This document shows, in pieces, positions 1-63,944 of a stretch of DNA of 64,000 bases. Under the pieces are notes generated by a model. The model was not told the origin of the DNA, did no database searches, and worked only from the letters and a program-made list of their open reading frames with translations. The stretch covers positions 832,001 through 896,000 of the forward strand of contig CAWDSK010000005.1 in assembly GCA_963804995.1 (NCBI GenBank). Reading direction: 5' to 3'. The position numbers were made by a program, and so were the translations under genes. The stretch is from an uncultured Acidobacteriota bacterium (GTDB lineage: Bacteria; Acidobacteriota; Terriglobia; UBA7540). The first letter of the stretch is position 1. Every line of letters starts with the position of its first letter.

Positions 1-1871
1 CCAGCATGGGCCCGGTATTGATGCCCACCCCGATATCCAGGCGCGGCAAACCTCTCGACTCCCATCCCTTTTGCAGGCGCTCCAGACCTTCGAGCATCTC
101 CAGACCCGTCCGGCAGGCCCGCAAGGCGTGGTCGGCCTGCGGATAAGGGGCGCCCCAGAAGGCCATGATGGCATCGCCGATGTATTTATCCAGGGTTCCC
201 CAATTCTTGAAGATCAACTCGGTCATTTCGGAAAGATACTCGTTGAGCAGGTCGACAAGCTTGGCAGGCGTGAGCCCTTCGGAGAGGGTGGTAAATCCGC
301 GAATGTCCGCAAATAAAGCCGTCAGCTCCTTTTCTTCCCCTCCCAAGCGGAGGGACTTCCGGGCTGCTGAGCATCTGAGCAATCAGCCCGGGGTGCATAT
401 ACTGGGAAAAGGCGGAGCGGACCTTCTTCTTTTCACCCTCTTCAAAGAAGAAGCGGTAACTGACGATACCCGCATAGGTGATCCCCAGCGTCGACATGGG
501 AAGAAAATCCGCGATCCATATCCTGTACTGGGCGAAGAGATGATAGGTCAGCAAAAAATACAGAACCAGGGAACTGGCCAGGACCAGGGTGGCGCGCAGG
601 GGGCTGAGGATGCTGATCAGCATCCCCGCTCCCAGGCTGAACAGGATGATAAAGGCGATGTCGGTCAGATGCTCGCGCGGACCGCGCCGGATAAAATGTT
701 GATAGAGAATATCATCAATCATATTGGCGTGCACTTCAATGCCGGGGAATCCCACCTGTTGGAAGGGTGTGAGCGCGGTGTCACCGATGCCCGTCGCGGT
801 GGGGCCGATCAAGACCAGCCGGTCACGAAAGAGCGCTGGCGATAACTTGTGACGAACAACGTCTGAAAACGAATAGGTGGGGAAGGTGCCGACGCGGCCA
901 TCGTAATCAAGCTGGACAAAGCCCTGCAGGTCCGTGGGGATGATGAGCGGGCCCATGTCGATCCTCTCCAGCCCGTTGGGGTTGAAGATCAGCTTTACCC
1001 GTTCCAGCGAGTAGTTGGTGTAGGCCAGGGTCGCGGCCACATCCAGGGAAGGATAGAAGTTGCCCTGGAAGGACACCACGGCGGGCTCGCGGCGGACGAT
1101 GCCATCGGGGTCCGGGATGATATTGAAGAATCCAAAATTCTTGGCGTTGGCCGCAAACTGCGGGAGATTGGGGGAGATGCCTAGCGCTTCCGGAACATCG
1201 GAATTCTTGGCGTATTGCGGGTTGATAATTTGCGGATAGGTTTGGAAGGACAGATAATTCAGGAAATCCTTCAGGCGCTCCTGGTTTTGAGTTTTGGTCT
1301 CCTCGGGTGGAATAACGAAATACCCCAGGATCGCATTGTCGAAGTGGGAAAGGGCATCGGCAAACTGCGTGTCGTTGTCGGCGGTCGCCTGCCGGGACTT
1401 CAGACTGGATTCGAAAGCGGGCGCGCGCGCGGCCCGTGTTACGAGGTGATCGTAATCCTCTTGAACTGACCGTAACGCCTGGAGAGCTGAATTGGCGTCC
1501 ACTTGGGGGAAATTGATATCAAAAGTGATGACGCGGGCATGGGCGCCGCGCAGAAAGTCAACCGCTTGCCCGAAGTAGCTGCGCGGAAAGGGCCAGCGTC
1601 CCAACACGTCCTGGCTCTTCTGATCAATGGCCAAGATCACCACGGCCGGCCCCGGGATGCGCGCCCCACGCAGTTCGAATCGAACGTCGAGCGTCTTCAG
1701 CTCAATGTTGTTGAGGAATCGAAGCAGTGAATTGGGGTGAGGCAGTATGTAGACGGCCGCATAGAGGGCTAGGCTGACGATACAGATCGAGATGCTGATC
1801 AGAAAGGAGTCGCGGTTTCGTGCGCTGAACTCGCGGGCGCGGGAACCGAAATGTGCGAGTTTTCCAAACAT
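1..1871 (-). CDS. CHASE2-domain adenylate/guanylate cyclase; frameshifted near 356 and truncated by the window edge
   Basis: ORF 186..1904 has CHASE2 motifs (ELKTLDVRF, IDQKSQDVLGRWPFPR, PDPDGIVRR, PGIEVHAN) and TM helices. The class III cyclase domain continues in another frame: LRLGGEEKELTALFADIRGFTTLSE...DKYIGDAIMAFWGAP...GVGINTG. Start taken at ATG 1871. Confidence 0.88.
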
Positions 1872-23856: not shown

Positions 23857-25416
23857 CTACGGGGTCGGCATATTGCCGAGTGTATTCGGCAGAGGCTTCC
23901 AGACCGCCGTCGTAATGGAAGCCGCCGGCAAAGTGAGTGGCACCGATCGTCGGATCGTGTTCAATTCGAAGTCCACTTGCACCTGGACATCACTCGGGCG
24001 ATCGTTCAGCAACTCGACAACCCAATGCCACCCACCCTCGGGCTCAGGTGAAAGGAACGCCAGGCCCCGAATCCCCGGGTATTTACCGTCCATCAGCACC
24101 CGCACCGCCCCCGGCCGCACGAACTTGCTGAAATGCGCCAGATAGTAATAGAGCCCCGTGTAAGTCACCTTCTTGGTTTCCCGATTGATGTGCACGATCG
24201 CGTGCTGCACATTGGGATCGGGATCAAGATGCACCGGGGACACGCACCAGGGGCCGCCCCGCTGATCCAAAATCATATTCCAGTAGACCCACGCCGAGGC
24301 TCCCGCTTCGACATCCGAGAAAATCATGTTCCCCCAGAAGGAGCCGTCTTCCCATGAGTAGTTCGGTACGGTCGTGAAGTGAGGCTTTCCCTCTTCATAG
24401 AAGTGGCACACTTCCGTCATCCACAAGCGGAGGTCAGGGTATTTCTGATGCAGGGCGGCAAGCTTGTCGAAATTCGCCGGACCTTTCAAGTGATCGTACC
24501 CGTGATAGGGGAGCTCGGTTAGGTATTGCCGGGCCTGCGGATCGTTGAGAACGATGGGATAGTATTGGGCAGCCTCCAGCCGCACCGGAGCCTCACCCAG
24601 CATGAGCTGGTTTTTCACCCCGGCCTTCTTGAAAAGAGGGCCGACGTGGTTCTTGAGCAGGTCAAGAATCTCCGGATACTTGATACTGGTGTAGCCGCCA
24701 TCGTCGTTGCGAGGCTCGTTGAACAAGCTGACATAATCGATAAACACGCCTTGCTTCTGGTACTCCTGGACATAGCGCAGATAATAGTGCGCGAGGGCAT
24801 CGTAATATTTGGGATTGACGTCCTGGTTCTTGTTGACGTCCATGAGCATCCAATCCGGCGGGTAATCCATGGGCGCTTCGAGCACGAACTTCCCGTACTG
24901 GCGGGCGCGCTTGATGTAGGTAATGACGCCGTTCGGTTCCAGGTCGCGTTGAATGGAGAAATGCTTCATCTCCACATCGCCGGGCGTATCGTCGTAGGTG
25001 TAATACGGTCCCGCCGACATGAAATCGGTGCCAGCGATGGGAGTCTTCATCGCTGAAAAGCCCGCGCCACGGTTGGGATCGAACAGGGCGCGCAGTAAAG
25101 CCTCCTGCTCCGCTTTGGGCAGATCATTGATGCAGATCAATCCCGCTTCGAGGAACGATGCCCCGAACCCCACCATCTTCTGGAGCATGTTTCCGGTCAA
25201 GATGTGAAATTCGGGGACCGTGGTCGGTTTCTTTTCTTCAAACTTCACCACAGGCCTGGCGGTGAGACGGTCTCCCGCTTTCGATGAAACGTAAACCTTC
25301 ACTTCCTGCCCGTACGCTGACCCCATGCATAAACCCACGAGTAGAACCCACAGCAGGCAAAGAGATGCCTTCCTCGGTGTCCGTCGGGACTCATTCATAC
25401 AAGTGCGTGTATTCAA
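23857..25416 (-). CDS. Glycoside hydrolase family 30
   Basis: VGFGASF, IAGTDF, FNEP (acid/base), WMTE (nucleophile), WNMILDQRGGP, HFSKFVRPGA; AGGAGG RBS before the TTG start. Confidence 0.92.
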   Translation of the reverse strand: MNTRTCMNESRRTPRKASLCLLWVLLVGLCMGSAYGQEVKVYVSSKAGDRLTARPVVKFEEKKPTTVPEFHILTGNMLQKMVGFGASFLEAGLICINDLPKAEQEALLRALFDPNRGAGFSAMKTPIAGTDFMSAGPYYTYDDTPGDVEMKHFSIQRDLEPNGVITYIKRARQYGKFVLEAPMDYPPDWMLMDVNKNQDVNPKYYDALAHYYLRYVQEYQKQGVFIDYVSLFNEPRNDDGGYTSIKYPEILDLLKNHVGPLFKKAGVKNQLMLGEAPVRLEAAQYYPIVLNDPQARQYLTELPYHGYDHLKGPANFDKLAALHQKYPDLRLWMTEVCHFYEEGKPHFTTVPNYSWEDGSFWGNMIFSDVEAGASAWVYWNMILDQRGGPWCVSPVHLDPDPNVQHAIVHINRETKKVTYTGLYYYLAHFSKFVRPGAVRVLMDGKYPGIRGLAFLSPEPEGGWHWVVELLNDRPSDVQVQVDFELNTIRRSVPLTLPAASITTAVWKPLPNTLGNMPTP

Positions 25417-38524: not shown

Positions 38525-39394
38525 TCATTTTGAATTCCGCTTTTTGTACGGCCCGCGTGGGCCGAATGTCGGCTCTGGCAATAGCGCCGCGATTTCCTCA
38601 ACACTCCAAACGTGATTTGAAGCCCCAGCTTCCATTGCCGGTGTGACTCGCAGCGTCTTGTGAATCCGGCAGAAATTATAGTGCATGTAGTACAGCGCCA
38701 CCATATATGCGTGGTTCTCAACCTTCTTTGAGAAGGCATTCGTCAGGCGCGTGAACCGGCGCATACCCATTCGCATATTTAGGTTCTGGCGCTCAACAAA
38801 AGAAGTGCTGATGTGCGTCGGGTCCGGGTGGCCCATGACCGGCTTGCGCTCGCATGAAGTGCATACCGCCGGACTGTAGCGCGTTTCCTCTTGCGCGGAT
38901 TCATAGGTTTTGACCAGCATGGCATAGTCGATCTCCGACCCAAATGCACCCTCTACTGCGTCCAGGTATACCCGAAGGCCATCCGTTGTTAGCTGAATTC
39001 TACTCGCAAGCCGTTCCTTAAGGTCGTCAATGAAAATACGGGCGGTCTGCAAATCACGATTGCCTACCATGAATGACGGCACCAGCTTGGTATCCGCGTC
39101 GATGGCAACCCAAGTCCAAACGTCGCCATACCCGAATTGACCCTTCTTGTCGGCAGGGACGTTCTTCTCTTTGGCGTAGCAGAACGTCCAGCACTCATCG
39201 CACTGGATACGCTTGCACTTCAGGCCGCGAAGCGCCTTGTCCTGATACTCAGCGCACGCCATGCCGATTTGTGGCAGCAGATTTAAGACGCTGTTAAACG
39301 CCACATCGCACATGCGAGTGGTAGCGCGAAGGGAATTCCCTTCTACCAGCGCGTGGATGATTTGGGATTGCTTTTTGCGGCTCATCTTATTCAT
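38525..39394 (-). CDS. IS1-family DDE transposase (single ORF)
   Basis: HTH (LVEGNSLRATTR), QCDECWTF, LTTDG, STSFVERQNL, RRFTRLTNAFSKK, YNFCRIH, TPAMEAG; stop codon lies inside the IR. Confidence 0.92.
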   Translation of the reverse strand: MNKMSRKKQSQIIHALVEGNSLRATTRMCDVAFNSVLNLLPQIGMACAEYQDKALRGLKCKRIQCDECWTFCYAKEKNVPADKKGQFGYGDVWTWVAIDADTKLVPSFMVGNRDLQTARIFIDDLKERLASRIQLTTDGLRVYLDAVEGAFGSEIDYAMLVKTYESAQEETRYSPAVCTSCERKPVMGHPDPTHISTSFVERQNLNMRMGMRRFTRLTNAFSKKVENHAYMVALYYMHYNFCRIHKTLRVTPAMEAGASNHVWSVEEIAALLPEPTFGPRGPYKKRNSK

Positions 39395-39400
39395 AATGAA

Positions 39401-39429
39401 ATTATGCATGAGCAGCACATGCATGTCAA
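39401..39429 (-). promoter_or_regulatory. Sigma70 promoter for the transposase, probably leaderless mRNA
   Basis: TTGACA-N17-CATAAT ending 6 nt before ATG 39394. Confidence 0.6.
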
Positions 39430-39646
39430 GAATTATTTTTATCATTGAAAATCAGCGCTTGCTAAGCACATACTGCTGTGGTAGCGTTTGCCTCAGAATC
39501 CCGTACTTGTTAAGAGAATATTCATGTCGGGGTGTTGATTTGCTGACCACGGCAACAGGCGGGTTGGAGAATAAATTGCTCACCGTTAAGCCTGATGTCT
39601 ATGCATCGCTGCGAGCGCTTGCGACATCAAAAAAGGGGTGAGGATT

Positions 39647-46460: not shown

Positions 46461-48165
46461 GAGCTTGTGACTTTTTTGGTCACCAGTAAGGGGGGATGGG
46501 TGGGGGGAGGAGGCAGAAAATCGGGAGCGGAGGTACGGAGAGAGAAAAAAGCTGGCGGTTGGGTCGGTACTTGTATTAATATAAATGTTATGGACAACGT
46601 TTTACATTCAGATGATTTTAAATTAGGAATGGAACCGGCGGTAGGTCAGGAAGCGGAAGGAAAGGAAGAGAAGGGCGCGAAGGGGGCAGCAGAGCGGCGC
46701 GGGGCGGTGCGTTTGCGCCGGCCGGAGCGCCAGCAGATGGCCTGGGTGGCGCAATGTCCGGACGATCTGGTGGGGCCGGGGCACGGGGTGCGGCGGGTGG
46801 CGGCGGTGGTGGAGCGCTTGGACTTAGCGGCGTTCCGCCTGCCGATCAAGGCGCGGGAAGGAGGGGCTGGACGGGACGCGACCGATCCCCAGCTTTTAGT
46901 GTCGCTGTGGTTATACGCCTGTGTGCGGGGCATCGGTGCGGCGCGCGAACTGGCGCGGCAGTGCCAGGAGCATGCGGCCTTTCGCTGGCTGTGCGGAGGG
47001 GTGACGGTGAACCACCGTTTGCTGTCGGACTTTCGCACCGATCACGCCGAGGCCTTGGACACCCTGTTCACGCAAGTGATCGCTGCTCTGGTGGATAAAG
47101 GAGTGGTGAAGGTCAGCCGCATCAGCCAGGACGGAATGCGGGTGCGGGTGGGGGCGGGGAAGAAGAGTTTTCGGCGGGAAAGGCGGCTGGAGGAACTGCT
47201 GGGGGAAGCGGAACGGCACGTGGCGGAGTTGAGACGGCAACTGGAGTCGCCGGAAGGAGCGGGGCTGAGCGCGCGGCAAGCGGCGGCGCGGAAGCGGGCG
47301 GCGCAGGAGCGGCAGAAACGCCTGCAGGAGGCGATTGCGCAACTGCCGGAGCTGCAACGCCGGCACACCGCAAGGGTAAAGCGGACGGGGGGAAAACGGG
47401 GCCAGGAGATTGCGGCGCAGCCTCCGCGGGTGAGCACGACGGATGCGGAAGCGCGCATCATGAAGATGCCCAACGGGGGCTACGACCCGGCGGTGAATGT
47501 GCAGTTGGCGGCGGACCCGGAGAGCCGCGCCATTGTGGGGGTGGAGGTGAGCGCGGAAGGTTCGGACTCGGGAGGACTGAGCGCGCCGCTGCGGGAACAG
47601 GTGGAACAGCGCACGGGCGGGAAGGTGGAAGAGCACTTGTTGGACGGCGGGTACCTGCGCAAGGAAGACTTGGAAGCGGCACACGCGCAGGGCGTGGCGC
47701 TGTTCATCCCGCCGCACACGGCGCAAAATCGTCAGAAGCGGGGGAAGGAACTGGAGCCCCAGAAGGGCGACAGCGAGGCCGTACGAGAGTGGAAGCAACG
47801 CATGAAAAGTGAGGAGGGAAAGAAAATCTATCAGCAGAGAGCGGCGACGAGTGAAACCGTCAACGCCGACTTGCGCACCTATCGCGGTTTGGGCCGCATC
47901 CTGGTGCGCGGGCTGGCCAAGGCACGCTGCGTGGCACTGTGGTGCGCCCTGGCTTACAACGTGATGCACTTCGCGCCCCTGTTGCTGGGCTAACCAAGCC
48001 CTGCCCAGCCGTACCGGGCACGGGTGTAGGGCGGATTCCCCCGGTACTCCTTGCCGCGCGGCACCGCTCCACCGGCCAAGGGGAGCCCTCTCGCGCACTT
48101 CCCAAGCTGCCCACTACCTGACCCGCCCCACCGCGTAACGGTGGCTTCGAAAAAGTCACAAGCTC
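46461..48165 (+). mobile_element. IS1182-family insertion sequence
   Basis: Perfect 16-bp IR GAGCTTGTGACTTTTT; CTG duplicated at 46458-46460 and 48166-48168. Confidence 0.92.
46590..47993 (+). CDS. IS1182-family transposase
   Basis: DPQLLVSLWLYA...RELARQC...FRWLCGG...HRLLSDFR, QDGMRVR, STTDAEARIMK, LDGGY, YQQRAATSETV. Confidence 0.92.
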   Translation: MDNVLHSDDFKLGMEPAVGQEAEGKEEKGAKGAAERRGAVRLRRPERQQMAWVAQCPDDLVGPGHGVRRVAAVVERLDLAAFRLPIKAREGGAGRDATDPQLLVSLWLYACVRGIGAARELARQCQEHAAFRWLCGGVTVNHRLLSDFRTDHAEALDTLFTQVIAALVDKGVVKVSRISQDGMRVRVGAGKKSFRRERRLEELLGEAERHVAELRRQLESPEGAGLSARQAAARKRAAQERQKRLQEAIAQLPELQRRHTARVKRTGGKRGQEIAAQPPRVSTTDAEARIMKMPNGGYDPAVNVQLAADPESRAIVGVEVSAEGSDSGGLSAPLREQVEQRTGGKVEEHLLDGGYLRKEDLEAAHAQGVALFIPPHTAQNRQKRGKELEPQKGDSEAVREWKQRMKSEEGKKIYQQRAATSETVNADLRTYRGLGRILVRGLAKARCVALWCALAYNVMHFAPLLLG

Positions 48166-50095: not shown

Positions 50096-50268
50096 CGCAG
50101 TCTCCTCCATTTGAGTTGTCGATTTGAACTTCCCAGTAGAACTGCACTATACACTCGGGCATTTTCATATGCAATGCCTGGGCAGTGCAGCGTGACCGCA
50201 ACCAAAACGTGCCACGGCCAACCTGCCCCGATGCATCGGGGTCCTGGCCGTGTCGGTCACGGGCGGGA

Positions 50269-50396
50269 GAAGGTGTGAAAAAATCGTCTAAACCTCCTTA
50301 CCGCAGAGACGCTGAGGCGCAGAGGAATGAAAATAAAGGTCCTTTTCTCTGCGTCTCAGCGCGTCCGCGGTAAAAATACTATTTCTTCACACCTTC
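50269..50396. mobile_element. 128-bp MITE inserted in a REP hairpin loop
   Basis: Ends GAAGGTGTGAA / TTCACACCTTC; GGA duplicated on both sides inside CACGGGCG-GGA-CGCCCGTG; internal palindrome ACCGCAGAGACGCTGAGGCGCAGAG...CTCTGCGTCTCAGCGCGTCCGCGGT. Confidence 0.8.
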
Positions 50397-50564
50397 GGAC
50401 GCCCGTGCCACAACGCAGGGGCCAGCGGCGCTGGCCCGGGACACCCCCCAGGTGAGAATCAAAGTGGAAATAACGCGATGAGTGAAATTCTTCGCACCTG
50501 GCATTCACGTCCGCACCCCTCATTTCAGATTTATGCTAACGCCGACCTAATAATCCCTGGTAGG

Positions 50565-50580
50565 TGTGACCCTTGTCATG
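50565..50580. promoter_or_regulatory. Possible CRP/FNR-family binding site
   Basis: TGTGA-N6-TCATG about 250 bp upstream of the radical SAM gene. Confidence 0.35.
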
Positions 50581-50822
50581 TTTTTGGCAAACCGGCATCA
50601 AGGTAATAAAAATGTAATCGGCATAGGATTTCGACATGGAGTGTTTTGGGTCCGTTAGACATTTGAGGCTTTAGGGGATGCGGTCTGACTGTGTCCTGAG
50701 GGATTGTAAATTTAAGCCAAGCTTCCGATTAGCGTTGCAGTTTGCTTAATTTCTGATGCAAGCAGCGATTTGCAACAATGACACGCCAACCGCCCCCCGC
50801 AAGCTTCGAGGGAGGGTTTGAA

Positions 50823-52487
50823 ATGTACCTTGGCACCTCTAGCCGCCGGGTCATGACCCACACCCGCCCGCGGGTGGGTCGGATTACGGCCTCGCTGCCC
50901 GATTCCCATCACATTCTGGAGGACATCCTTTCTGAACCCCTGGTGCGGAAAGCCTTCTCGTGGATGACGCGTCGCGATCCGGACGGCAAGTGCTTCTTCA
51001 TGCGGCTGTGCGAGAATTACGACAACCCCCAATCAGACTTCTGGAAGCGGCTGAAGTGGAGTGTGCCGAACCGGGTCATCGATCTGGGTCTTTGGAAGGC
51101 CAAGCTCGACAAGGAAACGATGAAGCAGCGGCTCTTCCACCATCCCCCCACGGTGAAGGCCCTGACGTTGACGGCCAAGAGCATCGCGACCTACGGTTTG
51201 ACGGTACCGCAGCGCTACACGGCGCCCATGTTTCCGGTCTGGAACATCACGCAGGCGTGTAACCTGTCCTGTAAGCATTGTTACCAGAACGCCCACCGCA
51301 TGCCGGATAAAGACGAGCTGACCACGGAGGAAAAGCTCAGGCTCATTGACCAGATGGGTGAGGAGTTCGTGCCTTTCCTCGCCTTCGCGGGCGGTGAGCC
51401 GCTGGTTGCCCCCGATCTTTGGAAGGTGCTGGAGCGTTGCGAGCAGCAGGGCATTCACGTGACCCTGGCCACCAACGGCACGCTGCTGACGCCGGAAATG
51501 TGCGCTCTTCTGAAGGACGCCAATGTGAAATACGTTGAGGTCAGCCTGGACAGCATCGATCCCGCCACGCACGACGCCTTTCGCGGCCAGCCCAAATCCT
51601 GGGAAAGAACTGTGCAAGGAATTCGCAACTGTGTGGCCGCGGGCATCAAGACCGGCTTGGCGTCCTGCTTCACGCGCCAGACCGCACACACGGTAGACGA
51701 CACCATTAAATTGGCCATCGATCTGGGCTGCAAGACGTTCTCGCATTTCAATTTCATTCCGGTCGGACGAGGCCAGGAAATCATGCAGCAGGACCTGACG
51801 CCGGGCCAGCGCGAACTGCTGTTGCGCAGACTCAAGGAACACTTGGAGGAAGGCAAAATTACGGTAGTTTCTACCGCGCCGCAGTTTGGCCGCACCTGCA
51901 TCGTGTATGGGCCGGAGGAAGGGTTATTCGCCACAGGGCACGCAGGCCGCGGTCCGGGGAAGAAGACCATGGTGCTTTCGCGTTACATCGGCGGGTGCGG
52001 AACGGGCCGCTGCTATTGCGCCATCCAGCCGAACGGAATCATCACCCCTTGTGTGTACATCTCCGGTATCAAAGTGGGCGACATTCGCGAGCGCAGTTTT
52101 CACGAAATCTGGAACAACGCCCTCTTTGACAAGCTTTCCGACCGCGAAGATCGCGGCGACCACTGCGGCGTTTGTACCTACCGGCATTACTGCGGCGGTT
52201 GTCGCGCCCGAGCCTTGGCTTATACGGGTGATATCCTGGCAGGCGACCCGGGCTGCATTTACAATCAGCACGAGTGGCAGGAAATCACCGACGCGGAGGG
52301 CCGTGGCGCAGGCGTAGAGCTCACCCCTGACATGGCCAAGACGGCGGCACAACTTGTGCAAATCGCTACCACCGCGGTCGAGGCGGGGGCCGAGTCAGCC
52401 AACCTCTGGGGGGTTTCGGAGCGGGAAGGGCGGCTGATTAATGACCTGGCCGCGCGGTTGAAGTCCACGTTCACCAATCCCAATTGA
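50823..52487 (+). CDS. Radical SAM/SPASM protein with a long N-terminal extension
   Basis: CNLSCKHC, GGEP, TNG, SLD; SPASM CGTGRCYCAIQPNGIITPC...CGVCTYRHYCGGCRARA...DPGC. Confidence 0.93.
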   Translation: MYLGTSSRRVMTHTRPRVGRITASLPDSHHILEDILSEPLVRKAFSWMTRRDPDGKCFFMRLCENYDNPQSDFWKRLKWSVPNRVIDLGLWKAKLDKETMKQRLFHHPPTVKALTLTAKSIATYGLTVPQRYTAPMFPVWNITQACNLSCKHCYQNAHRMPDKDELTTEEKLRLIDQMGEEFVPFLAFAGGEPLVAPDLWKVLERCEQQGIHVTLATNGTLLTPEMCALLKDANVKYVEVSLDSIDPATHDAFRGQPKSWERTVQGIRNCVAAGIKTGLASCFTRQTAHTVDDTIKLAIDLGCKTFSHFNFIPVGRGQEIMQQDLTPGQRELLLRRLKEHLEEGKITVVSTAPQFGRTCIVYGPEEGLFATGHAGRGPGKKTMVLSRYIGGCGTGRCYCAIQPNGIITPCVYISGIKVGDIRERSFHEIWNNALFDKLSDREDRGDHCGVCTYRHYCGGCRARALAYTGDILAGDPGCIYNQHEWQEITDAEGRGAGVELTPDMAKTAAQLVQIATTAVEAGAESANLWGVSEREGRLINDLAARLKSTFTNPN

Positions 52488-53689: not shown

Positions 53690-53700
53690 TGTTGCGTAGC

Positions 53701-53810
53701 GCCTTGGACTGCGGTAGCAGCAGCTACCGCCTTTCTTCCTCCACCCCTTGTGTCTTTGCCGTATGATCCGAAGGCGGAAGGCGGTAGCTGCTGCTACCGC
53801 AGTCCAAGGC
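53701..53810. repeat. Palindromic REP doublet between convergent genes
   Basis: GCCTTGGACTGCGGTAGCAGCAGCTACCGCCTT ... AAGGCGGTAGCTGCTGCTACCGCAGTCCAAGGC; architecture parallels the 37570/41994 elements. Confidence 0.88.
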
Positions 53811-53862
53811 GGGCTTCGCCCGCAATTAGACTCCCTAATCCGTGACCACAACTAAGTTGGGG

Positions 53863-56800
53863 TTATCGCGCATTCGCGCTGATGCGTTTGAAGGTGACGC
53901 GAACGCTCTCACCGTTCGTCCCGGTTGCTTCCCCACCGGCGAGCAAAGACTTGGCATCGATGGCGTTTCCGAGATCCTCATAAAGCTCATCAGAAAGGTA
54001 ATTTGCCGCGCCCATTCGTCCGGCTGCAATCCAGGCCTCGATTGCGGGGTTGAATGCCGCCCCCAGCAGCGCGGCGTGGCCCTCGGGCAGTCCGCTGCTC
54101 CTCGCCAAATCCGCCAGGGAGGTGTCGCTCAAGATACGCTGCATATCCTGGCCTGCTTTCGACGCCGGCGAATTTCCTTTGAGCAGAGCGTCAGCCAGAC
54201 TGGAAATCGTCAGTTGCTCCGCAATCTTCGATTTCACAATCTGCTCGAAGGTTTCGCCCCCCAGGAAACGCTGCAAGGAGTTGATGAGGTCGCGGAATTC
54301 CTTGCGGGCGGCTTCATTCTTCGCGGGGTCGGGATCGAACGTAATGTGCTCAACATCAATCTGGGAGAGAACGTTCTTAAGCGCGGCTGGATCGCCCGCC
54401 GTCCCCGCGGCATTCGCGGCGGCCATCTCCTGATCGCAAGCGCGTCCGGCCTTCCAGAGATCCTGAAGAATCGGGATGGGAGCAGGCTTGGCCAGCTTGC
54501 GCCCAAAAGCTTCCCGAGTGAATTCATGACAATAGTAGAGATTCTGAAAAGGCGGCTGGTCGGCGATCGTTGAAGACTCCATAAAAAGGAAATCATATCC
54601 AAGCTGGGCTTTCGCCCCGATTTCCACGGCTCGCGCCGCCGCCACCTTGCCGATGGGGTAAGGTTGCCAGGAGGGCGCGCTGCCCTCCCTGCGCTCGACC
54701 ATTCCCACAGGGCGATATACCTCTAGCGTCCCGACGTTCGCCCCTTCCAAAAAAGATTCGGGCTGGGTGGGCAGGGACTTCATCTGTTGATAGACAGCGG
54801 CGTCAGCAGGAGTGAGCGGCGTGTACTCGTAACCCCAACCAATCTCATTCACCATATAAAAGGGTTTGCCCTGGTAGCTCTCAGTCTTGATAAGCCCGGA
54901 GTGGTTTTGGGGACTTTGGGGTGAACCCAAGGCGCGCTGGACGTAGCCGATGGGGCCGCCCGTGCGCAGCACCACATCACCATCGGCAAGCTGATACGGC
55001 CGCTTTTGGGGATCATCGGGGTCAGGGAGTAGCGCGATTTCCTGAGGAATGCTCCCATTCGCCGCCGCGACTTCCTTGTAGGTTTTCGTCGTGGTCTTTG
55101 CCTCGCGGAACGTTGCGACACCGAGGGCGATGTCGTCCAGCGTCGTCTTGTAGAGCAGGGGACAAAGCCGCTGCTTGATTTCGTACTGAATGGGCACGCT
55201 CGCGAGGTACGCCTCACCATCTGTCACTCCCACGCGAATCAGCACAACACCTGGCTTGGCTCCGACATTGAATGCTAATTCCAAACCGGTTCCCAGCACC
55301 TGCCAAGGAGAATCGGGTGAGGGGCGTTGATACCACGTCACCTGCGAGGATGCCGGTGGCTTGTCAGCGGAGGTAAGCAGCTTCAGCCGGGCCGAGTCTG
55401 ACGTGTAAAACGTTCCGCCAGGAATCACCTCCTGCCAAACACCTTCCGGGGGCAGGTCGTGCTTGGGCGCACCCAGTGATTCGTTGATGCCTTCGAGGCT
55501 GAGGACCAGCAACTCGCGGCGCTCGGCGGAAAACCGCACGGTTGCTTCCTTCTTGCCGCCCGAAACCGAGGGGATGGAGAGGGCCGTCGCGCCTTCGAAA
55601 GCCCGAAGCGCCGCGGCCATTGGCACACAGGTTTTGGGCCCAGGACACACGGCGATTAGCTTGCCATCGGCCGTGAGCAGAGGACCGCCTGACTCACCGG
55701 GATCGAGCGCCCGCGCCAACCGTACAAGACCGGCGGTGCCAGCGCTGGGGCGGGATTCGAGAGTGACGTCAACCTGCTGAACTTTAGCTTGTTCTTGATC
55801 GGTGCCGAAGGGAAAGCCCAGCAAGGTGGCGGATGATGGCGTTGCCCCCTCGCCCGTGGGCAGGAGTGGCGTGACAGTGCTGGACTCACCAACGATCTTG
55901 AGCCACGCCAGATCATTTGCCCCTTCCGCATGTACATTGATTATTTCCGGGGGATTCGAGCTGCCCGCGGCTGGCTTGGGTTCCATAAGGTCCGCCGGCA
56001 GCTTCCACAATTCCAGAGTGTGCCGGCTGGTGCTTAACGCGTCGGTCAAGTCAAGCTCACCTTTCACCGTCATGACCCGTGTATCGATGGGCCAAGCGGC
56101 GAGCTGGTAGGTTTTGGGATCCAGTTCGTATCCGGAGCGGCTCATCAAGGACAACACCTGGGCGTCGAACTTCCAGGGTTGAACAACTCGTTTGGCGGTC
56201 AGCAGCGTGCCATCGGTGTCAATCAGGAAAGCAGTGCCGGACTGCGCGTAGCGCTGCACATCGTGGGTCCGCGGATTGCGCAAAGAGTAGGCACAGTAAA
56301 TCAGGAACATGCGTCCTGCCGCGGCGGCCGAGAGGGTGCGGGCCGTGCTCAACTTTTCCTGGCGCTGCTTCGCCAACACGCCCGCGGCGAGCGAGAAGGG
56401 TGTCGAAAGGGTGTCGATCAACTTGAGAACCGCGGCCTGGATCATGGGCTCGTCGGTGAAGGCGTGCATGGGGATGGTTTGATCCAGGTTGACGGGCAAC
56501 ACAACCTGCCGCGCCCTCATCACCGCCGCTTCCAGAGTGCTCAACTGGACCAGAATAAAGAGCTGCCCCGTGAGGTGCAAAGTATCCTGACTTACCAGCC
56601 GGCGGATAGGTTCAAGTGAGTCGAACTCCGCGAAAACGAAGGACAGGCGAAGCGGCGTGGGCAAATCCACCGCGGCGCTCTTCGACAACCGAAACTCCGT
56701 GTCGTAGGGTTCAACGTGGACGGGCAGGTCATTGGCGCGCACGTCCTGAAAGTAGATCTTCACGACGGTGGCCGGCCGGTCAACCGGATTCATGCTGACG

Positions 56801-57039
56801 AACAGGTTGAGTGCCAGGTGGTCGAGGTTGATATCCTGATAGGCCACACTGCGCACCACGGTGAGATCGCCTTTCATCTTTTCCGAGGTCTTCTCCGGCA
56901 GGTGATAAACCTTGACTCCCTTCAGGCCGGAAGGTAACTCAGCCTGCTCCTTGTTATCGGGAAGAGGAGCGCGGGAGAATCCCAAAGCACACGTTAGGAC
57001 GAAAGTGATAGCTGCGAACGCGATGGTTTTGCGCGCCAT
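53863..57039 (-). CDS. Large secreted protein: trypsin-like domain plus permuted papain-like (YiiX/NlpC) domain
   Basis: Signal peptide MARKTIAFAAI; SGTAFLI...LLTAKRV, DLAWLK, PGESGGPL; later DGDVVLR...HSGLI...YD...YCHEF. Confidence 0.7.
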   Translation of the reverse strand: MARKTIAFAAITFVLTCALGFSRAPLPDNKEQAELPSGLKGVKVYHLPEKTSEKMKGDLTVVRSVAYQDINLDHLALNLFVSMNPVDRPATVVKIYFQDVRANDLPVHVEPYDTEFRLSKSAAVDLPTPLRLSFVFAEFDSLEPIRRLVSQDTLHLTGQLFILVQLSTLEAAVMRARQVVLPVNLDQTIPMHAFTDEPMIQAAVLKLIDTLSTPFSLAAGVLAKQRQEKLSTARTLSAAAAGRMFLIYCAYSLRNPRTHDVQRYAQSGTAFLIDTDGTLLTAKRVVQPWKFDAQVLSLMSRSGYELDPKTYQLAAWPIDTRVMTVKGELDLTDALSTSRHTLELWKLPADLMEPKPAAGSSNPPEIINVHAEGANDLAWLKIVGESSTVTPLLPTGEGATPSSATLLGFPFGTDQEQAKVQQVDVTLESRPSAGTAGLVRLARALDPGESGGPLLTADGKLIAVCPGPKTCVPMAAALRAFEGATALSIPSVSGGKKEATVRFSAERRELLVLSLEGINESLGAPKHDLPPEGVWQEVIPGGTFYTSDSARLKLLTSADKPPASSQVTWYQRPSPDSPWQVLGTGLELAFNVGAKPGVVLIRVGVTDGEAYLASVPIQYEIKQRLCPLLYKTTLDDIALGVATFREAKTTTKTYKEVAAANGSIPQEIALLPDPDDPQKRPYQLADGDVVLRTGGPIGYVQRALGSPQSPQNHSGLIKTESYQGKPFYMVNEIGWGYEYTPLTPADAAVYQQMKSLPTQPESFLEGANVGTLEVYRPVGMVERREGSAPSWQPYPIGKVAAARAVEIGAKAQLGYDFLFMESSTIADQPPFQNLYYCHEFTREAFGRKLAKPAPIPILQDLWKAGRACDQEMAAANAAGTAGDPAALKNVLSQIDVEHITFDPDPAKNEAARKEFRDLINSLQRFLGGETFEQIVKSKIAEQLTISSLADALLKGNSPASKAGQDMQRILSDTSLADLARSSGLPEGHAALLGAAFNPAIEAWIAAGRMGAANYLSDELYEDLGNAIDAKSLLAGGEATGTNGESVRVTFKRISANAR

Positions 57040-57326
57040 AATCCAGGAGCTCCCTGCGGAACGAAATCCAGATATTCCGTTTCCGCCACAACCAGCAGAT
57101 TGCATATTAACCGGCATGGGTTCTGATTGCGGAGTATAGCAGCTTGCGAACCGGCAGGATAATGCCAACCGAGGCATTGCTGCCTTGCTTCCTAAAAAGG
57201 CTTAGCGCGGCTAAGCGGCATGCGAAAAGTCATAGGAAGAAAACGCATGAGGATGGGAAAAGTAGTGGGACCTCGCTCGCTATGCCGCGCGGAGAGCAAC
57301 AAGTGGGACGTCCCACTTCTTTACAA

Positions 57327-57648: not shown

Positions 57649-58209
57649 TTAATTCCCCAGCTTGACCGGGACGGAGCCATTCTCCGTTGGCGCTTTGCTG
57701 AGGTCCAGGAGGAGCTTAGGTGTGACCTTCTTGTCGTTGCACAGCACCGGGAATTGCAGTGTGGACTGGCGACTACTCGCGCCGGCCACGAGCACAAAAG
57801 CAAGTTTCCGGGATTCCACTTGCATGCTCTTTATCGAAACACCGGAAATCTTGATGGCGTCGCGCTTGAGCCCCTCAAAGCTGAGCCGCGTGGGTCCCGG
57901 ATGGGCGGAAAGATTCAATTGAAGGTTCCAGCGCGTGCCCGACTTGACCCAACGGGTTTGCTGATCGAGGCACCCGCGCAAGAGGAGTTCGTCAGGGTTC
58001 TCGCAGCAACCGACGGGGGGAGGCAAAGGATCGCAGACTTGCGGTGGCCCCGGCGTTTGCGCCTTTGCCCCGCAGGCCAGGACGATTCCTGTCCCCACGG
58101 TTGTGGCCGTGCGCATCAGATTTTCCAGATGGGCCAGGGTGCGCTCCCTGACCGTCCCCGCGCCGGGTTCAGGCGGCGAAAGGCCTTTTCGCGTTCGGTT
58201 CTTTTTCAT
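57649..58209 (-). CDS. Hypothetical lipoprotein-like protein with a VCDPLPPP motif
   Basis: GGAG RBS; IVLAC lipobox-like motif, then PGPPQVCDPLPPPVGCC and a beta-rich domain; downstream of the B12 radical SAM gene. Confidence 0.7.
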   Translation of the reverse strand: MKKNRTRKGLSPPEPGAGTVRERTLAHLENLMRTATTVGTGIVLACGAKAQTPGPPQVCDPLPPPVGCCENPDELLLRGCLDQQTRWVKSGTRWNLQLNLSAHPGPTRLSFEGLKRDAIKISGVSIKSMQVESRKLAFVLVAGASSRQSTLQFPVLCNDKKVTPKLLLDLSKAPTENGSVPVKLGN

Positions 58210-58422
58210 GAAATCTCCATTTCTGTTCTGTTGGCTTAGCTTCACACTGCCGTGCAATACGGTAATGTCTTATTTTTGAGCGAGGACTTTGTGCCATCGT
58301 GCTGTGAAACGCTCCCTGGTCGTCAATTGGTGCCTGGGCGACCCCCTCACCCGTCCCGCCCCGGCTGATGAAAACGCCGGTTGCGGTCCACCCTCTCCCC
58401 CAAGGGGGCGAGGGTTATAGAT

Positions 58423-60045
58423 TCAAATCAACATCCCTTTCACAGGTGAGAAATCCGCGTCAGCCTCACACTGCCCAGCCTCACGAATCGTGTTTTCGAT
58501 TTCTGTTTCGAGTCTGCCGGCCGCCTCGTGGATCAGGCGCTCCGTGGCTCGGAGCCTGGTGGTAAGCTCCGCTGTGAATTCCATATCTTCCTGGCTTGGT
58601 CTGCGCGCTTTCACGAATCCGATGATCTCCCGCACTCCCCGCACGGAATCCAGCGTCAGCTCGCGAGTGAGTTCTTTAGCTTTCACCCGCCAAGCCTCGC
58701 GGAAAACTTGCGGATGAAATCGGGCCGCCACCTCCACAACAAATCGTGTGCCCATCAGAAGATTCGCGGCGGACTCACCGGAGAAGTTGCGCACATAGAA
58801 ACACTGCATGGCCAGCTCAAAGATTCTCTGCACTTCGTCGTCGTGGATTCGATAATTCCAATCGAGGTAGTCTCCCTGGCATCGCCCCTCCGCCTGCATC
58901 ATGGCGAGGAGCGGCGTACCGGCATAGAGCTCGACGCGGCCAAAGTTCTGCGGTACGGCGGCGAATTTCTCCATGAAGGCGAGATTAGTTTCGAGATCCT
59001 GGATTTCGGTCGACGGGTCAAAGATGAGCGTATTGAAGCAGGCGTAAATGCCAAACCGCTCCATGAGTTCGAGGGCAGCACCATTCTGCGCACTCCCCAC
59101 CCGGCGTCCCATGGTCAGCAGACCCTGCTCGGAATTACTTTCGATGCCCACATAAACCCGGATGAGCCCCAGCCGCTCCCGCATTGCAGATATAAGCTCC
59201 GGGTCGAGGTCGTTGGGGCGCGCCTTGACGACCGTGGCAATATTCCGAACCCCGCGCCGCTCCAGCGCGTCGGCCAGGGAGGCAACGCGCTTCAGGGTTT
59301 GGGCGCGATTGGGCAGGAAAAAATTATCGTCATGGAAGATAAAGATATCGATTTTTCTTTGGTGATACAGCGCTGCCATTTCCTCGGCAACGTCCTCCAC
59401 TGGTCGCAGCCGGAAGCGCTTGCCGGGTTGGGTTTGCTCATGCCAGGCGGAGATGCAACAAAAAGCGCAGTTCGCATAGCAACCACGACTGGCTACCAGG
59501 GGAGCCACGCGGTGACCGAGGCATTCGGACGGCGCCCCGCGGCGATCGGGCGGAGGGAGTTTGTGCAGATCGGGAGGAGCGGGCAAGGCCGTCAAGCGGA
59601 TTTCACCGGGCGCGTCGCGGTAAGCCAGGCCGGGGATTTGGGCTACGTCACTTTCCGAGCGGAGAGCCTGCGCGAGCCTCACCAGGGTTTCCTCCGCCTC
59701 GTGCCGGCAGATCGAATCGATCTCCGGAAAATCTCGCAGGATTTCCCGGCACGCAAAGGTTCCGAAATGGCCGCCCGCGGTGATATGCCCCGTATAGTCT
59801 CTTTGCCGAAGCGCGATGCTAAGGGCGAAAAAATCCTTCGCCCGGCGCTGGAAGGAAAGGGAAAGCCCGATGAGCGCCGGCGGTTCACCTGAATCGAGCA
59901 ACCTCGCAAGCACCCGGGGCAGGTCGTGAGGGCCGTCGAAGGGAACTATGGCGGACTCAAATCCGGCGGCTTCAAGGGACGAGGCAAGATATCGCAGACT
60001 GAGGTTTTCTTCGAGTTCAGGGCCAACCAGCGCAACTTGGAACAC
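58423..60045 (-). CDS. B12-binding radical SAM protein (class B methyltransferase-like)
   Basis: EENLSLRYLAS, ITAGGHFGT cobalamin domain, SRGCYANCAFC, FHDDNF, VGIES, YAGTPL. Confidence 0.92.
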   Translation of the reverse strand: MFQVALVGPELEENLSLRYLASSLEAAGFESAIVPFDGPHDLPRVLARLLDSGEPPALIGLSLSFQRRAKDFFALSIALRQRDYTGHITAGGHFGTFACREILRDFPEIDSICRHEAEETLVRLAQALRSESDVAQIPGLAYRDAPGEIRLTALPAPPDLHKLPPPDRRGAPSECLGHRVAPLVASRGCYANCAFCCISAWHEQTQPGKRFRLRPVEDVAEEMAALYHQRKIDIFIFHDDNFFLPNRAQTLKRVASLADALERRGVRNIATVVKARPNDLDPELISAMRERLGLIRVYVGIESNSEQGLLTMGRRVGSAQNGAALELMERFGIYACFNTLIFDPSTEIQDLETNLAFMEKFAAVPQNFGRVELYAGTPLLAMMQAEGRCQGDYLDWNYRIHDDEVQRIFELAMQCFYVRNFSGESAANLLMGTRFVVEVAARFHPQVFREAWRVKAKELTRELTLDSVRGVREIIGFVKARRPSQEDMEFTAELTTRLRATERLIHEAAGRLETEIENTIREAGQCEADADFSPVKGMLI

Positions 60046-60539: not shown

Positions 60540-60583
60540 TCCAACCTGCAACCCACGATCTTTGACAACTGGAGGTGAGAAGT

Positions 60584-61330
60584 ATGGAGAGGCGTGAAGT
60601 TTTGCGGAAGTGCCTCGGCGGTGCAAGCCTGGCACTGGTTGCGCCAAGATTGCTTCCTGCTGTAAACCAAAATCAAACTGTGGAGAGGCCCGCGGATTTC
60701 CAAACGGTAGTCGCTGATGCCCTGTCAAGCTACTACTGGGGTGAGTTCAAGCGCGCCTGTGATCTTTACACGCGGGCGCTGCTGCTTATTCCCCCCAACC
60801 TCGCAATCGCCGATTTGGCTGATATTCATGAACAACGCCTCACGGCATGGGAACTTGTGAAATCGGCGGAGGAGACTCTTCCTGCCCACCAAGCAGGCGT
60901 TCAAGCTGAGCCCCAGGATGCGGAGAAACATTTCTGGCTCGGGTACACTCTCACCCGCCTCGACCGCCATGAGGAAGCACTGCGAGAATACCAAGCGGCC
61001 TTGAAGGGGGGCTATCAAGGCAAATGCTGGAACGAAATCGGCTGGTGCTACTACCGGATGGGAATGCACCGGGAATCGATCAAATGGTTCGAGCGGGCCT
61101 GTGAAGGCGAGGATACTCTTCCCGTGCCTGGCTTATCGCAGCAATGCAACGCAATGGCGAACAAGATTGTGGCTTTTGCCGCGCTGCGGATGACTCGTGA
61201 AGCTCATGACACCGCCAGCAAGTATATTCGCCAATATGGCCGGCTTTCCTGGCCCGAACGCCGTGCGCTCGCCAATCTCAACATCGACGCCGACGCGATG
61301 TACGTCAATCACTGTACCCGCGAGGCCTAA
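60584..61330 (+). CDS. TPR-repeat protein with Tat-like signal
   Basis: MERREVLRK...; TPR patterns HFWLGYTLTRLDRHEEALREYQAAL and WNEIGWCYYRMG...WFERA. Confidence 0.8.
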   Translation: MERREVLRKCLGGASLALVAPRLLPAVNQNQTVERPADFQTVVADALSSYYWGEFKRACDLYTRALLLIPPNLAIADLADIHEQRLTAWELVKSAEETLPAHQAGVQAEPQDAEKHFWLGYTLTRLDRHEEALREYQAALKGGYQGKCWNEIGWCYYRMGMHRESIKWFERACEGEDTLPVPGLSQQCNAMANKIVAFAALRMTREAHDTASKYIRQYGRLSWPERRALANLNIDADAMYVNHCTREA

Positions 61331-61427
61331 CAGAACACCATTACGGTTCGGGGAAAACGAGCGGGTGGTATAATCGCGCCCGCTCGTTTCCCCAAGGTTT
61401 CAGCCCCTGCACGCGGAGGTTCCTACT

Positions 61428-62402
61428 GTGCCTCGCGGTGATCAACTGACACGCCAATGGAAACTCGTCCAACTCCTGGCCGGTCGGGTGGGGCGGACAC
61501 TTGCCCAACTCATGGGTGAGTTAGGCGTCAGCAAGCGCACCGTCCAGCGGGACATCGAAGTCCTAACCTCAGCAGGTTTCCCGGTCACTTCGGAGACGCG
61601 CAACGGCACGGTGTTCTGGCGCTTAATGGAAGGCTTCCATGCCGAGCGGCCTATTGCGCTGACGCTGACTGAACAGATGGCGCTCTATTTCAGCAAGGGC
61701 CTCTTCAAGCCCTTGCAGGGCACACCCATGTACGAATCGCTGGAAGCCGCTATTCAGAAGATCGGGTCACAGCTTCCCGCCCAGAGCTTCAAGTTTCTTC
61801 GTGGCTTGGACGAAGGCATCTCAGTATCCAGTTTTGGGCTAAAGGATTTCAGCCATTCGAAAGAGGTGATTCATACTTTGACCCATGCCGTATTCCAAAA
61901 GTTCACTATTCGAATTCGGCATCAGGCGGCGCACAGGGCGAAGGCTATTGAGCGCGAGGTTGATCCCTACAAGCTTTGGTACGTGAATAACGGATTGTAT
62001 CTGGTCGGTCACGACCACCGGGAGGAGGCCCTGCGGACCTTCGCCGTGGAACGGATTCAGTCTGCCCAAAAAACCAACCGGCGATTTGAAGTCCCGGAAG
62101 ACTTCAAGTTCGAGGATTTCAAACGGACCGCCTTCAGTATGGTCTGGGGCGAGCCGCAGGAAGTGAAGATCCGCTTCTCGCCGTCGCAAGCCCCATACAT
62201 TCGCGAGCGCACCTGGCACGCCAGCCAGACAATTGAGACTCATCGCGACGGGAGTATAATCCTGACGCTTTATGTCGCCGAGTTGGATGAAGTCAAGCGC
62301 TGGCTGATTGGCTTCGGCGCGGATGCTGACGTATTGGAACCTAAGGCGCTAAGGACGGAAATTGTTGCTCAATGCAGAGCCCTGGCTCGCCGGGAACGGT
62401 AA
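61428..62402 (+). CDS. HTH-WYL-WCX transcriptional regulator
   Basis: wHTH (ELGVSKRTVQRDIEVL), REVDPYKL...LYLVG...LRTFAVERI, WHASQ, WLIGFGADADVLEP..LR. Confidence 0.93.
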   Translation: MPRGDQLTRQWKLVQLLAGRVGRTLAQLMGELGVSKRTVQRDIEVLTSAGFPVTSETRNGTVFWRLMEGFHAERPIALTLTEQMALYFSKGLFKPLQGTPMYESLEAAIQKIGSQLPAQSFKFLRGLDEGISVSSFGLKDFSHSKEVIHTLTHAVFQKFTIRIRHQAAHRAKAIEREVDPYKLWYVNNGLYLVGHDHREEALRTFAVERIQSAQKTNRRFEVPEDFKFEDFKRTAFSMVWGEPQEVKIRFSPSQAPYIRERTWHASQTIETHRDGSIILTLYVAELDEVKRWLIGFGADADVLEPKALRTEIVAQCRALARRER

Positions 62403-62454
62403 AGGACCAGCTACAATTACTCTCAGAAAAGACAATCGCAGACACGGGAGACCA

Positions 62455-62889
62455 ATGGCCGCCAAGAAGGGAAGCAACGCCGAAAGCGTGGACCAACTTA
62501 TAGCAGAAATCTCAAAAATAGGCGGGGGTGCGGCCCTAAGAAGCGCGCTAAGAGAGATGCTCGGGCGAAGCGAATATAAGAGCGGGGCAGCGCGCGTTCT
62601 TCGGGATTTTCAGCGATTTCTGCAAACCCTTGCCCGCTCCGGTTTCAAGTTTTCCGAGACTTTCGGGGGTGAACTCCGATTTGCCCAACACGACTTCCCT
62701 GAACACATTGTCGCGCTGGCGCCTCAGCGTAATGGGAGTGTCGGATGGTCACATTTCTCTCCATGGGGGACGACTAACGGAACGGGGTTGCGCTCGCTTA
62801 AGAAGCTACTTGCGGAACGCTATGGGAGGGGAATCGCCTATCGCGGCAGGAGACGCATTATTCTTGCAGGCCCGTCGTCGGTGGAATGA
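62455..62889 (+). CDS. Hypothetical protein
   Basis: GGGAG RBS, 144-aa ORF co-oriented after the WYL gene; no recognised motif. Confidence 0.55.
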   Translation: MAAKKGSNAESVDQLIAEISKIGGGAALRSALREMLGRSEYKSGAARVLRDFQRFLQTLARSGFKFSETFGGELRFAQHDFPEHIVALAPQRNGSVGWSHFSPWGTTNGTGLRSLKKLLAERYGRGIAYRGRRRIILAGPSSVE

Positions 62890-63077
62890 GTGAGCGTCGA
62901 ACTGCTGCCCCCAAAGTCACTCCCCACGGGGAAGACAAGTGCTGGCTGATTCGCTTCGGCGCTGAGGCCTGTGTACCTACACCCAGCACTTTGCAGATGG
63001 AGATTGCCAGGGAGTGCCAATATTTGGCGGGCAGCGTGACCGACAAGTGAGGGCACCTCGGGAGGGAGGAATCCGGC

Positions 63078-63944
63078 GTGGGAAAAGAAGAGGGACCGAT
63101 TGGCACGATCCACCACTGGGCAGAACTGGCCAGAACACGCTCCGCTCTCAAACCGAAACGAAGGGTCACTTGGAAAAGCGTCAACCGCATGATTAGTTCC
63201 GCCCGAACGGTGTGGCTGGCGGAATCCGCTAAGTTACGTGACCTATTGCGAGAGTCAAACATGCGTTCTGAGCCTCTAAGCGATCCCTTGCTTTCGAATT
63301 TTGACCTTCATCGCTGGCTGGCGGGGGAACGCGAAGAAGTGTATTCGGACTGGCTGGAGTGGGTTGTAAAGCAGCTTCCGACGCTTGGAGATGTCTTTTA
63401 TGTACTCGGCATCGAGGAACCCTCGGAGATCGCTTCTGAAGCTCTCTCCACGTGCTCTACGGAACGGGAGAAGTGGGTGACGCTGCCCCATTGGGAATCC
63501 AATAAAAGACTTGACCTTGTGATTCGATGCGAGGGCCGTGTCCTTGTTCTGATCGAAGTTAAGATAACCTCTCCCGAAGAAGCTGACACGGCGAAGCAGG
63601 AGGAGTACTTTGAGTGGGGGGAAAAGCAACTGGAAAGTCAAAGGTACTATATCCTCCTTGCCAAAGCGGGCGAGCGCCCCGAGTACCACAAATTTAAGCT
63701 CCGCACGTTCGAGGGTCTCTGTCGGGCGCTGAGGAAACGAACCCCTGAAGTTATCAGGGAGAAGAAAATGACGGTCCTCACGGGGGCACTGGTTTTCGCT
63801 TACGTCGGGGCCATCGAACAGAACCGGCTGGGTCTGTCGTCGGGCGCGGCGCAGAGGGTATTTCGCGGAGAAGATATCGCAACGGCCCGAAGGCTTGCAC
63901 TTTATCTCGAAGACAACTTAGAGGGGAGCAACGACGATGGATGA
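63078..63944 (+). CDS. PD-(D/E)XK nuclease superfamily protein
   Basis: EEVYSDWLEW...RE...RLDLVI...LIEVK...Q..Y pattern; start uncertain. Confidence 0.75.
   Translation: MGKEEGPIGTIHHWAELARTRSALKPKRRVTWKSVNRMISSARTVWLAESAKLRDLLRESNMRSEPLSDPLLSNFDLHRWLAGEREEVYSDWLEWVVKQLPTLGDVFYVLGIEEPSEIASEALSTCSTEREKWVTLPHWESNKRLDLVIRCEGRVLVLIEVKITSPEEADTAKQEEYFEWGEKQLESQRYYILLAKAGERPEYHKFKLRTFEGLCRALRKRTPEVIREKKMTVLTGALVFAYVGAIEQNRLGLSSGAAQRVFRGEDIATARRLALYLEDNLEGSNDDG

Follow-up and report, generated by a model that had tools for sequence, protein, structure and literature searches.

The stretch of DNA that we analysed (64,000 nucleotides, hereafter the window) comes from an uncultured Acidobacteriota bacterium of the class Terriglobia and carries a radical SAM/SPASM gene for a protein of 554 aa, which we call gms after the clade in which we place it below. 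A small membrane protein gene follows it closely (Table 1). The ATG start is the same in seven relatives in an alignment of the upstream regions, and the GAGG columns of the ribosome-binding site do not vary in any of the eight regions aligned. The closest named relatives of the protein, 73-83% identical (8/11 loci), are Acidobacteriota, several of them Terriglobia. An earlier note on this DNA had described an archaeal-type radical SAM/SPASM enzyme with a set of characteristic motifs; the open frame and all of the quoted motifs are indeed found in the translation, CxxxCxxC being C146/C150/C153. The same note had remarked on the absence of heme and PQQ genes and of a precursor peptide nearby, and our survey agrees with this. 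Inspection by eye of the ORFs at 38-64 kb brought up neither heme nor PQQ genes, none of seven neighbouring ORFs scanned against family models matched a heme or PQQ family, and no precursor peptide was evident by eye among 11 ORFs of 23-59 aa with an SD-like site within ~1.4 kb of gms.

Table 1. Features of the gms locus (positions in the window) and of the 554-aa protein (residue numbers)
Feature	Position	Strand	Remarks
Partly conserved element	50481..50497	+	Precedes the sigma54-like site by about 105-120 nt; aligns by eye with a block in 5/7 relatives
CRP-like box of the earlier note, TGTGA-N6-TCATG	50565..50580	+	Rejected, chance match
Candidate sigma54 (-24/-12) promoter, GG-N10-GT	50601..50615	+	Inferred, putative; GG-N10-GC in relatives
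Ribosome-binding site GGAGG	50811..50815	+	Precedes the ATG at 50823
Gms-clade radical SAM/SPASM gene	50823..52487	+	Single open frame, 554 aa; motifs and 82% identity to MBZ5671987.1
Small membrane protein gene, 191 aa	52504..53079	+	16 nt downstream of gms; two hydrophobic helices, HisKA-like helical end
Helical N-terminal domain	Residues about 28-135		554-aa protein
Radical SAM core	C146/C150/C153		554-aa protein
SPASM domain cysteines	C392, C410, C448, C451, C457, C460, C478		554-aa protein
C-terminal helices	Residues 495-554		Lineage-specific, low confidence in the AlphaFold model

Several other features of the surroundings were recorded. Two REP-like palindromes flank the locus (50258-50407 and about 53691-53825); BLAST locates related pieces at about 108 and 54 sites genome-wide, and the second gives a miRNA-type Rfam match below threshold, i.e. 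a hairpin. Further downstream lies a minus-strand gene for a 1,104-aa protein (53863-57177) with a trypsin-like domain and a long C-terminal region without assignment. Beyond it, on the same strand (57649-60045), a B12-binding radical SAM gene is followed by a 202-aa ORF without a family, which has a Cys/Pro-rich stretch; these two are possibly a small modification pair, one that is not conserved next to gms. The B12 radical SAM protein (58423-60045, 540 aa) has ApyD as its best match at 99 of 750 bits, and was rejected as a candidate Gmm, with no family above cut-off and presence in fewer than three of the 28 loci compared. An NCBIfam scan of 17 other radical SAM proteins (E<=1e-45) labelled none of them as Grs, Mss or Gmm, enzymes for which models may not exist. 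A TPR gene opens a plus-strand stretch (60575-63944) whose further ORFs resemble, by eye, a regulator of the WYL type and a nuclease; the region may mark the border of a defence island. Two transposase-like ORFs were also seen by eye, at 38525-39445 (-) and 46467-47993 (+).

Pfam assigns a Radical_SAM domain (residues 141-298) and a SPASM domain (392-451) to the 554-aa protein, and its AlphaFold model (mean pLDDT 91.7) shows seven helices and no sheet at residues 31-124, ahead of the barrel. The helical N-terminal extension described in the earlier note is thus borne out by the model. Twenty-six columns of this domain are conserved hydrophobic, and no solved structure matches the domain alone above Z 3.6. 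A profile of the N-domain, which we built with the named archaeal test proteins left out and which contains close relatives of the protein from Acidobacteriia SRVP_9, matches 6/6 Gms-type and 0/4 Ahb/NirJ-type test proteins; within the genome it matches the 554-aa ORF only. The cysteines of the assayed M. okinawensis enzyme are 123/127/130, 370, 372, 388, 429, 432, 438, 441 and 459 (PMC11186832), and the spacing in our protein equals this at 10/11 cluster ligands (radical SAM 3/3, auxiliary 7/8). The AuxI ligand C372 is replaced by T394, in a column where Cys is in none of the top four residue classes, and the CxC spacing of M. okinawensis is absent from all library proteins checked. C397, C399 or C359 could stand in for the missing AuxI ligand, or the site could be open.

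Archaeal Gms, the GMGT synthase, joins the two chains of a membrane-spanning lipid into an H shape. It has been defined as AhbD-like but extended at the N-terminus by 100 residues (COG4001, about six helices), and 193 of its 1,149 homologues are bacterial, 31 of them in Acidobacteria (PMC11214058, Garcia et al. 2024), in agreement with the mostly archaeal subfamily that the earlier note had suggested. Dataset S4 of that paper lists MBZ5671987.1 from Acidobacteriia SRVP_9 as a Gms with Tes present; this protein, which is that of our locus L003, is 82% identical to the 554-aa protein over its whole length. Further homologues listed there are found among our matches (MCS6953920.1, MCD6239180.1 and AFZ70470.1). 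Identity to MCD6239180.1 and AFZ70470.1 is 38-41% and extends into the N-terminal domain, whereas AhbC/AhbD/NirJ2-like proteins are 33-36% identical in the core only. Garcia et al. took as Gms those proteins of at least 400 aa that match the T. guaymasensis enzyme by BLASTP at E<=1e-80 (PMC11214058). Our protein exceeds this length, and in proxy comparisons with the database size set to 1e8 it matches AFZ70470.1 at E 2e-108 and MCD6239180.1 at 5e-121. Searches of a 50%-representative library gave a similar picture, in that most of the best full-length matches have 100-225 residues before CxxxCxxC and the AhbD/NirJ/AhbC-like proteins rank lower than the Gms-type matches.

We calculated trees on the core domain only, so that the N-terminal extension was unable to drive the grouping. 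In a 35-row tree (LG+F+G4), 14 Ahb/NirJ/TIGR04053 rows are split from all Gms-like rows with support of 99.6/100, and the two rows of Ahb/NirJ/TIGR04053 type from the host genome itself, including its AhbD-like protein, fall among the 14. A 77-row tree from a quick search (15 rows removed by a motif filter) recovers the split from the AhbD outgroup at 95 SH-aLRT, with weak deep nodes inside the Gms group (81 SH-aLRT). The Gms rows of both trees are homologues from the supplements of two papers, the four assayed enzymes being left out; when assayed Gms were sought, the P0157 search led to Bathyarchaeia and the P0130 search to mostly Thermoprotei, and ten other representatives had no matching accession. 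In neither tree does the protein group with AhbC/D, the placement that the earlier note had said would speak against its reading. The separation from AhbC, AhbD and NirJ, together with the Gms-like N-domain and cysteines, upholds the assignment to the Gms family, and the listed homologues, the domain content and the tree jointly support membership of the Gms clade. Compared with the archaeal Gms enzymes (T. guaymasensis, T. celer, P. furiosus PF0647 and M. okinawensis METOK_RS04425), the protein has the same helical N-domain, radical SAM and SPASM layout, an AhbD-like core, and the cysteine spacing of 18 and 3-6-3-18 seen in the M. okinawensis enzyme. It differs in its bacterial host, in the Thr equivalent to C372 and in about 60 additional C-terminal residues, and no Gmm or Grs gene was recognised as linked to it. 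With MBZ5671987.1 it shares the domain layout, the downstream small gene, a Tes in the genome and the proposed role as a brGMGT maker.

Other functions within the radical SAM/SPASM superfamily were weighed against this assignment. No NCBIfam family reaches its cut-off for the protein, and the top matches are to enzymes of the heme pathway, namely NirJ2 (TIGR04055, 254.7 of 500 bits) and AhbD (TIGR04545, 254.5 of 500); AhbC (TIGR04546) follows at 186.6 of 650, and one set of Atlas look-alikes is AhbC-like. These are the nearest named families, with 31-36% identity over the core, but AhbD and NirJ2 are matched at about half of the cut-off score, the three enzymes fall in a separate clade without the N-domain, and the genome holds an AhbD-like protein of its own (479 bits) on another contig, within the AhbD clade. 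We therefore regard a function as AhbD heme b synthase, AhbC or NirJ as very improbable. A SPASM peptide maturase of the PqqE, SkfB or SuiB type would be in keeping with PqqE being the nearest solved structure by sequence (E 4e-20) and with the fold matches to SkfB (Z 26.4, rmsd 3.5, 297 residues aligned) and SuiB (Z 26.2, rmsd 3.6, 334 aligned). However, the matches to solved structures are only 16-23% identical, reflecting the common SPASM fold, and an equal likeness to SuiB is reported for a true Gms (PMC11186832, Li et al. 2024). The maturase families also score far under their cut-offs (PqqE 122.2 of 381.35, MftC 151.2 of 265, others lower). The N-domain, moreover, is all-helical, unlike the peptide-recognition element of such maturases, which has a different fold. 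Taken with these points, the maturase reading appears highly improbable, and we proceed with the protein as a member of the Gms clade.

A Gms acting on membrane-spanning lipids presupposes a synthase for them; the earlier note had suggested that the genome be searched for one, and had said that a lack of membrane-spanning lipid synthesis would speak against its reading. This genome (92% complete) encodes a Tes that scores 561.6 bits against the curated cut-off of 450 (NF045702; E 4e-129 to 7TOL), and in addition a longer Tes paralogue that falls under the cut-off at 323.7 bits (E 2e-59 to 7TOL). It also encodes a PlsA/Ger-like reductase of 1,040 aa with two activator domains; a second copy of this gene is split over two frames (G000:C7:41460-44424), as an assembly error or a pseudogene. 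The two-domain form of PlsA/Ger has been linked to alkyl ethers, with Ger and PlsA being inseparable by sequence (PMC13274423). This gene content supports the view that the genome has what the synthesis of membrane-spanning ether lipids requires. PcrB/GGGP synthase, on the other side, has no match in the 92% complete genome, and for a bacterial host lacking such a match a branched lipid derived from acyl chains is the likely substrate.

The association of Gms with Tes extends beyond this genome. In a sample of 401 genomes of the class, Gms is present in 23 and a close Tes in 50; all 22 of the other Gms carriers have a Tes-family match (21 at E<=1e-100), and 21 of the 22 have a PlsA-type domain, a count made among carriers only. 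In 10 of these 22, tes lies within 2 kb of gms on the same strand (seven with the close Tes, three with the long paralogue), although the carriers are kin, the ten linked cases spanning three families with six from one family. In a sample of the phylum Gms is present in 15 of 401 genomes, and 13 of the 14 other carriers have a Tes above cut-off. Bacterial gms genes have been reported clustered with tes or mss (PMC11214058), whereas in the host genome and its genus gms stands apart from tes; four of the eight genomes sampled from this genus contain gms. The long paralogue (about 700 aa) is found near gms in five loci (G385:C434, G253:C38, G136:C254, G106:C62 and G371:C32), and this proximity suggests that it also acts in the synthesis of membrane-spanning lipids.

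On these grounds we propose that the Gms homologue probably links one chain to the other in a branched tetraether made by Tes, giving a branched GMGT. The 13,16-dimethyl centre of the brGDGT chain mirrors the centre of biphytane, the presumed site of the archaeal bridge. The PlsA/Ger-like reductase, present as a gene, would first provide iso-C15 ether lipids. Tes, also present, would then couple their tails to brGDGT, a bacterial role that follows a published proposal for Tes as the brGDGT synthase (PMC10087280). Tes would thus be the upstream partner in the pathway, and both enzymes would carry out radical SAM C(sp3)-C(sp3) coupling of lipids, although the 554-aa protein bears only a distant likeness to 7TOL (E 2e-12 over the core). 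The helical N-domain and the barrel of Gms would hold both chains, in a pocket carried over from the archaeal models. In two rounds of SAM cleavage, hydrogen would be abstracted from a mid-chain methyl, one per chain, with an auxiliary 4Fe-4S cluster keeping the first radical until the C-C bond is made. Double abstraction with the auxiliary cluster holding the first radical is itself a proposal for archaeal Gms (PMC13459092, section 2.3), carried over here by homology. In our literature search, which covered journals outside subscription, no report of a bacterial Gms being assayed came to light.

Two further readings keep the protein in the Gms clade and alter its substrate or its reaction. 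Archaeal-type isoprenoid tetraethers, or another hydrophobic compound that is made or taken up, would accord with isoprenoid GDGT-0 being the sole proven Gms substrate, but the lack of a PcrB/GGGP-synthase match and the PlsA/Ger-like family in nearly all other carriers point to acyl-derived ethers, and such a substrate seems improbable. The enzyme might instead perform other chemistry on the Tes-made branched lipids, such as an intra-chain ring, a desaturation or a second tail-to-tail bond (brGTGT to brGDGT). All of the genomic links tie Gms to Tes and none to a product, identity to the archaeal homologues is only about 40%, and in the six genomes where gms begins 119-143 nt after tes, this placement would fit a helper role equally. 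Against this, four of four assayed members of the clade, from two archaeal orders, form the inter-chain bridge, and brGMGTs occur naturally without a known enzyme. Of the 50 genomes of the class sample that have a close Tes, moreover, 28 lack Gms, so that it is not required with Tes. We consider other chemistry unlikely, and retain the cross-linking of branched tetraether chains as our preferred function.

The region upstream of gms was examined for regulatory sites, since the earlier note had seen a CRP/FNR-like box there and taken it to fit low-oxygen control. Searched with the common CRP and FNR consensus patterns, the box has two mismatches, and the window holds 15 such matches compared to 18.25 expected. 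Any CRP-like match occurs in only 2/29 upstream regions of relatives, at other positions, and no FNR match within two mismatches lies in the 420 nt upstream of the gene in the window. The argument for low-oxygen control from this box is thus not supported. A perfect FNR consensus is present at 25127-25140, inside an ORF and far from gms. A Rex-like match at 50482 was discarded, being present at that place in the window only, and a search for structured RNA (Rfam, 11 loci) returned three matches, all under the gathering score.

In place of the box, the upstream alignment contains unvarying GG and TG columns at the spacing of a sigma54 promoter. The motif lies about 220 nt upstream of gms in near relatives: the pattern is found in 14/16 of their upstream regions (12/14 distinct) at -185 to -222, compared to 3-7% per region in shuffled sequences, a count that is optimistic because the pattern was fitted to the same sequences. 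The copy in the window has TGT at -12, which fails the strict GC rule, and the match to the textbook -24 element is weak; TGT variants are known among sigma54 sites (PMC3844500). The genome encodes rpoN/RpoN and 21 activator domains. The partly conserved element further upstream is a possible, weakly indicated activator site, the usual enhancer distance being 80-150 bp (PMC3844500). The sigma54-like pattern occurs in 0/12 more distant gms upstream regions, in 0/2 of those before the two tes genes of the genome, in 0/4 before tes-gms operons and in 1/14 before tes1. Its near-absence before tes and tes-gms operons leaves co-regulation with tes unsupported. We judge sigma54 control of gms to be an evenly balanced prospect, and there is no evidence here that links it to oxygen.

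The 191-aa protein encoded downstream of gms has no Pfam or NCBIfam match, although its Atlas look-alikes include a HisKA-bearing set. Its gene is probably co-transcribed with gms, and most near relatives have it in the same place, at 37-64% identity. Among the four genomes of the genus that lack gms, the downstream gene is absent in three and in two pieces in the fourth. In this fourth genome (G353:C14; L092, L093), a 27-residue remnant of gms lies beside the split downstream gene, a sign of recent gms loss.

That acidobacterial Gms homologues make brGMGTs was proposed in 2024 (PMC11214058) and repeated since (PMC11868695), and the idea of a bacterial Gms is therefore already published as a hypothesis. 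As the proposal and a sequence 82% identical to ours are both in print, the gene described here adds a candidate and not a concept. Its small additions seem to be the sigma54-like motif in place of a CRP/FNR box, a motif that we did not find mentioned in the text of PMC11214058, and the conserved downstream membrane gene. That some relatives have gms linked to the long Tes paralogue also seems to be new, though a figure in PMC11214058 may show likewise. In this lineage, gms would have moved away from tes, and sigma54 may drive its expression.

A broader reading, which we think rather unlikely as a whole, is that this Terriglobia lineage makes branched GMGTs with a gms uncoupled from tes and placed, together with the two-helix HisKA-like gene, under a sigma54 activator, such that H-bridging would be an inducible response of the membrane to one specific signal. 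Branched GMGTs are known from peats, lakes and low-oxygen waters; to our knowledge, neither a producer nor an enzyme has been demonstrated for them. A single genome, 92% complete, that combines a bacterial Gms with Tes and with a reductase of the PlsA/Ger-like kind provides a direct test case. If the reading is true, both a producer and a regulator would be named for an orphan paleoclimate biomarker.
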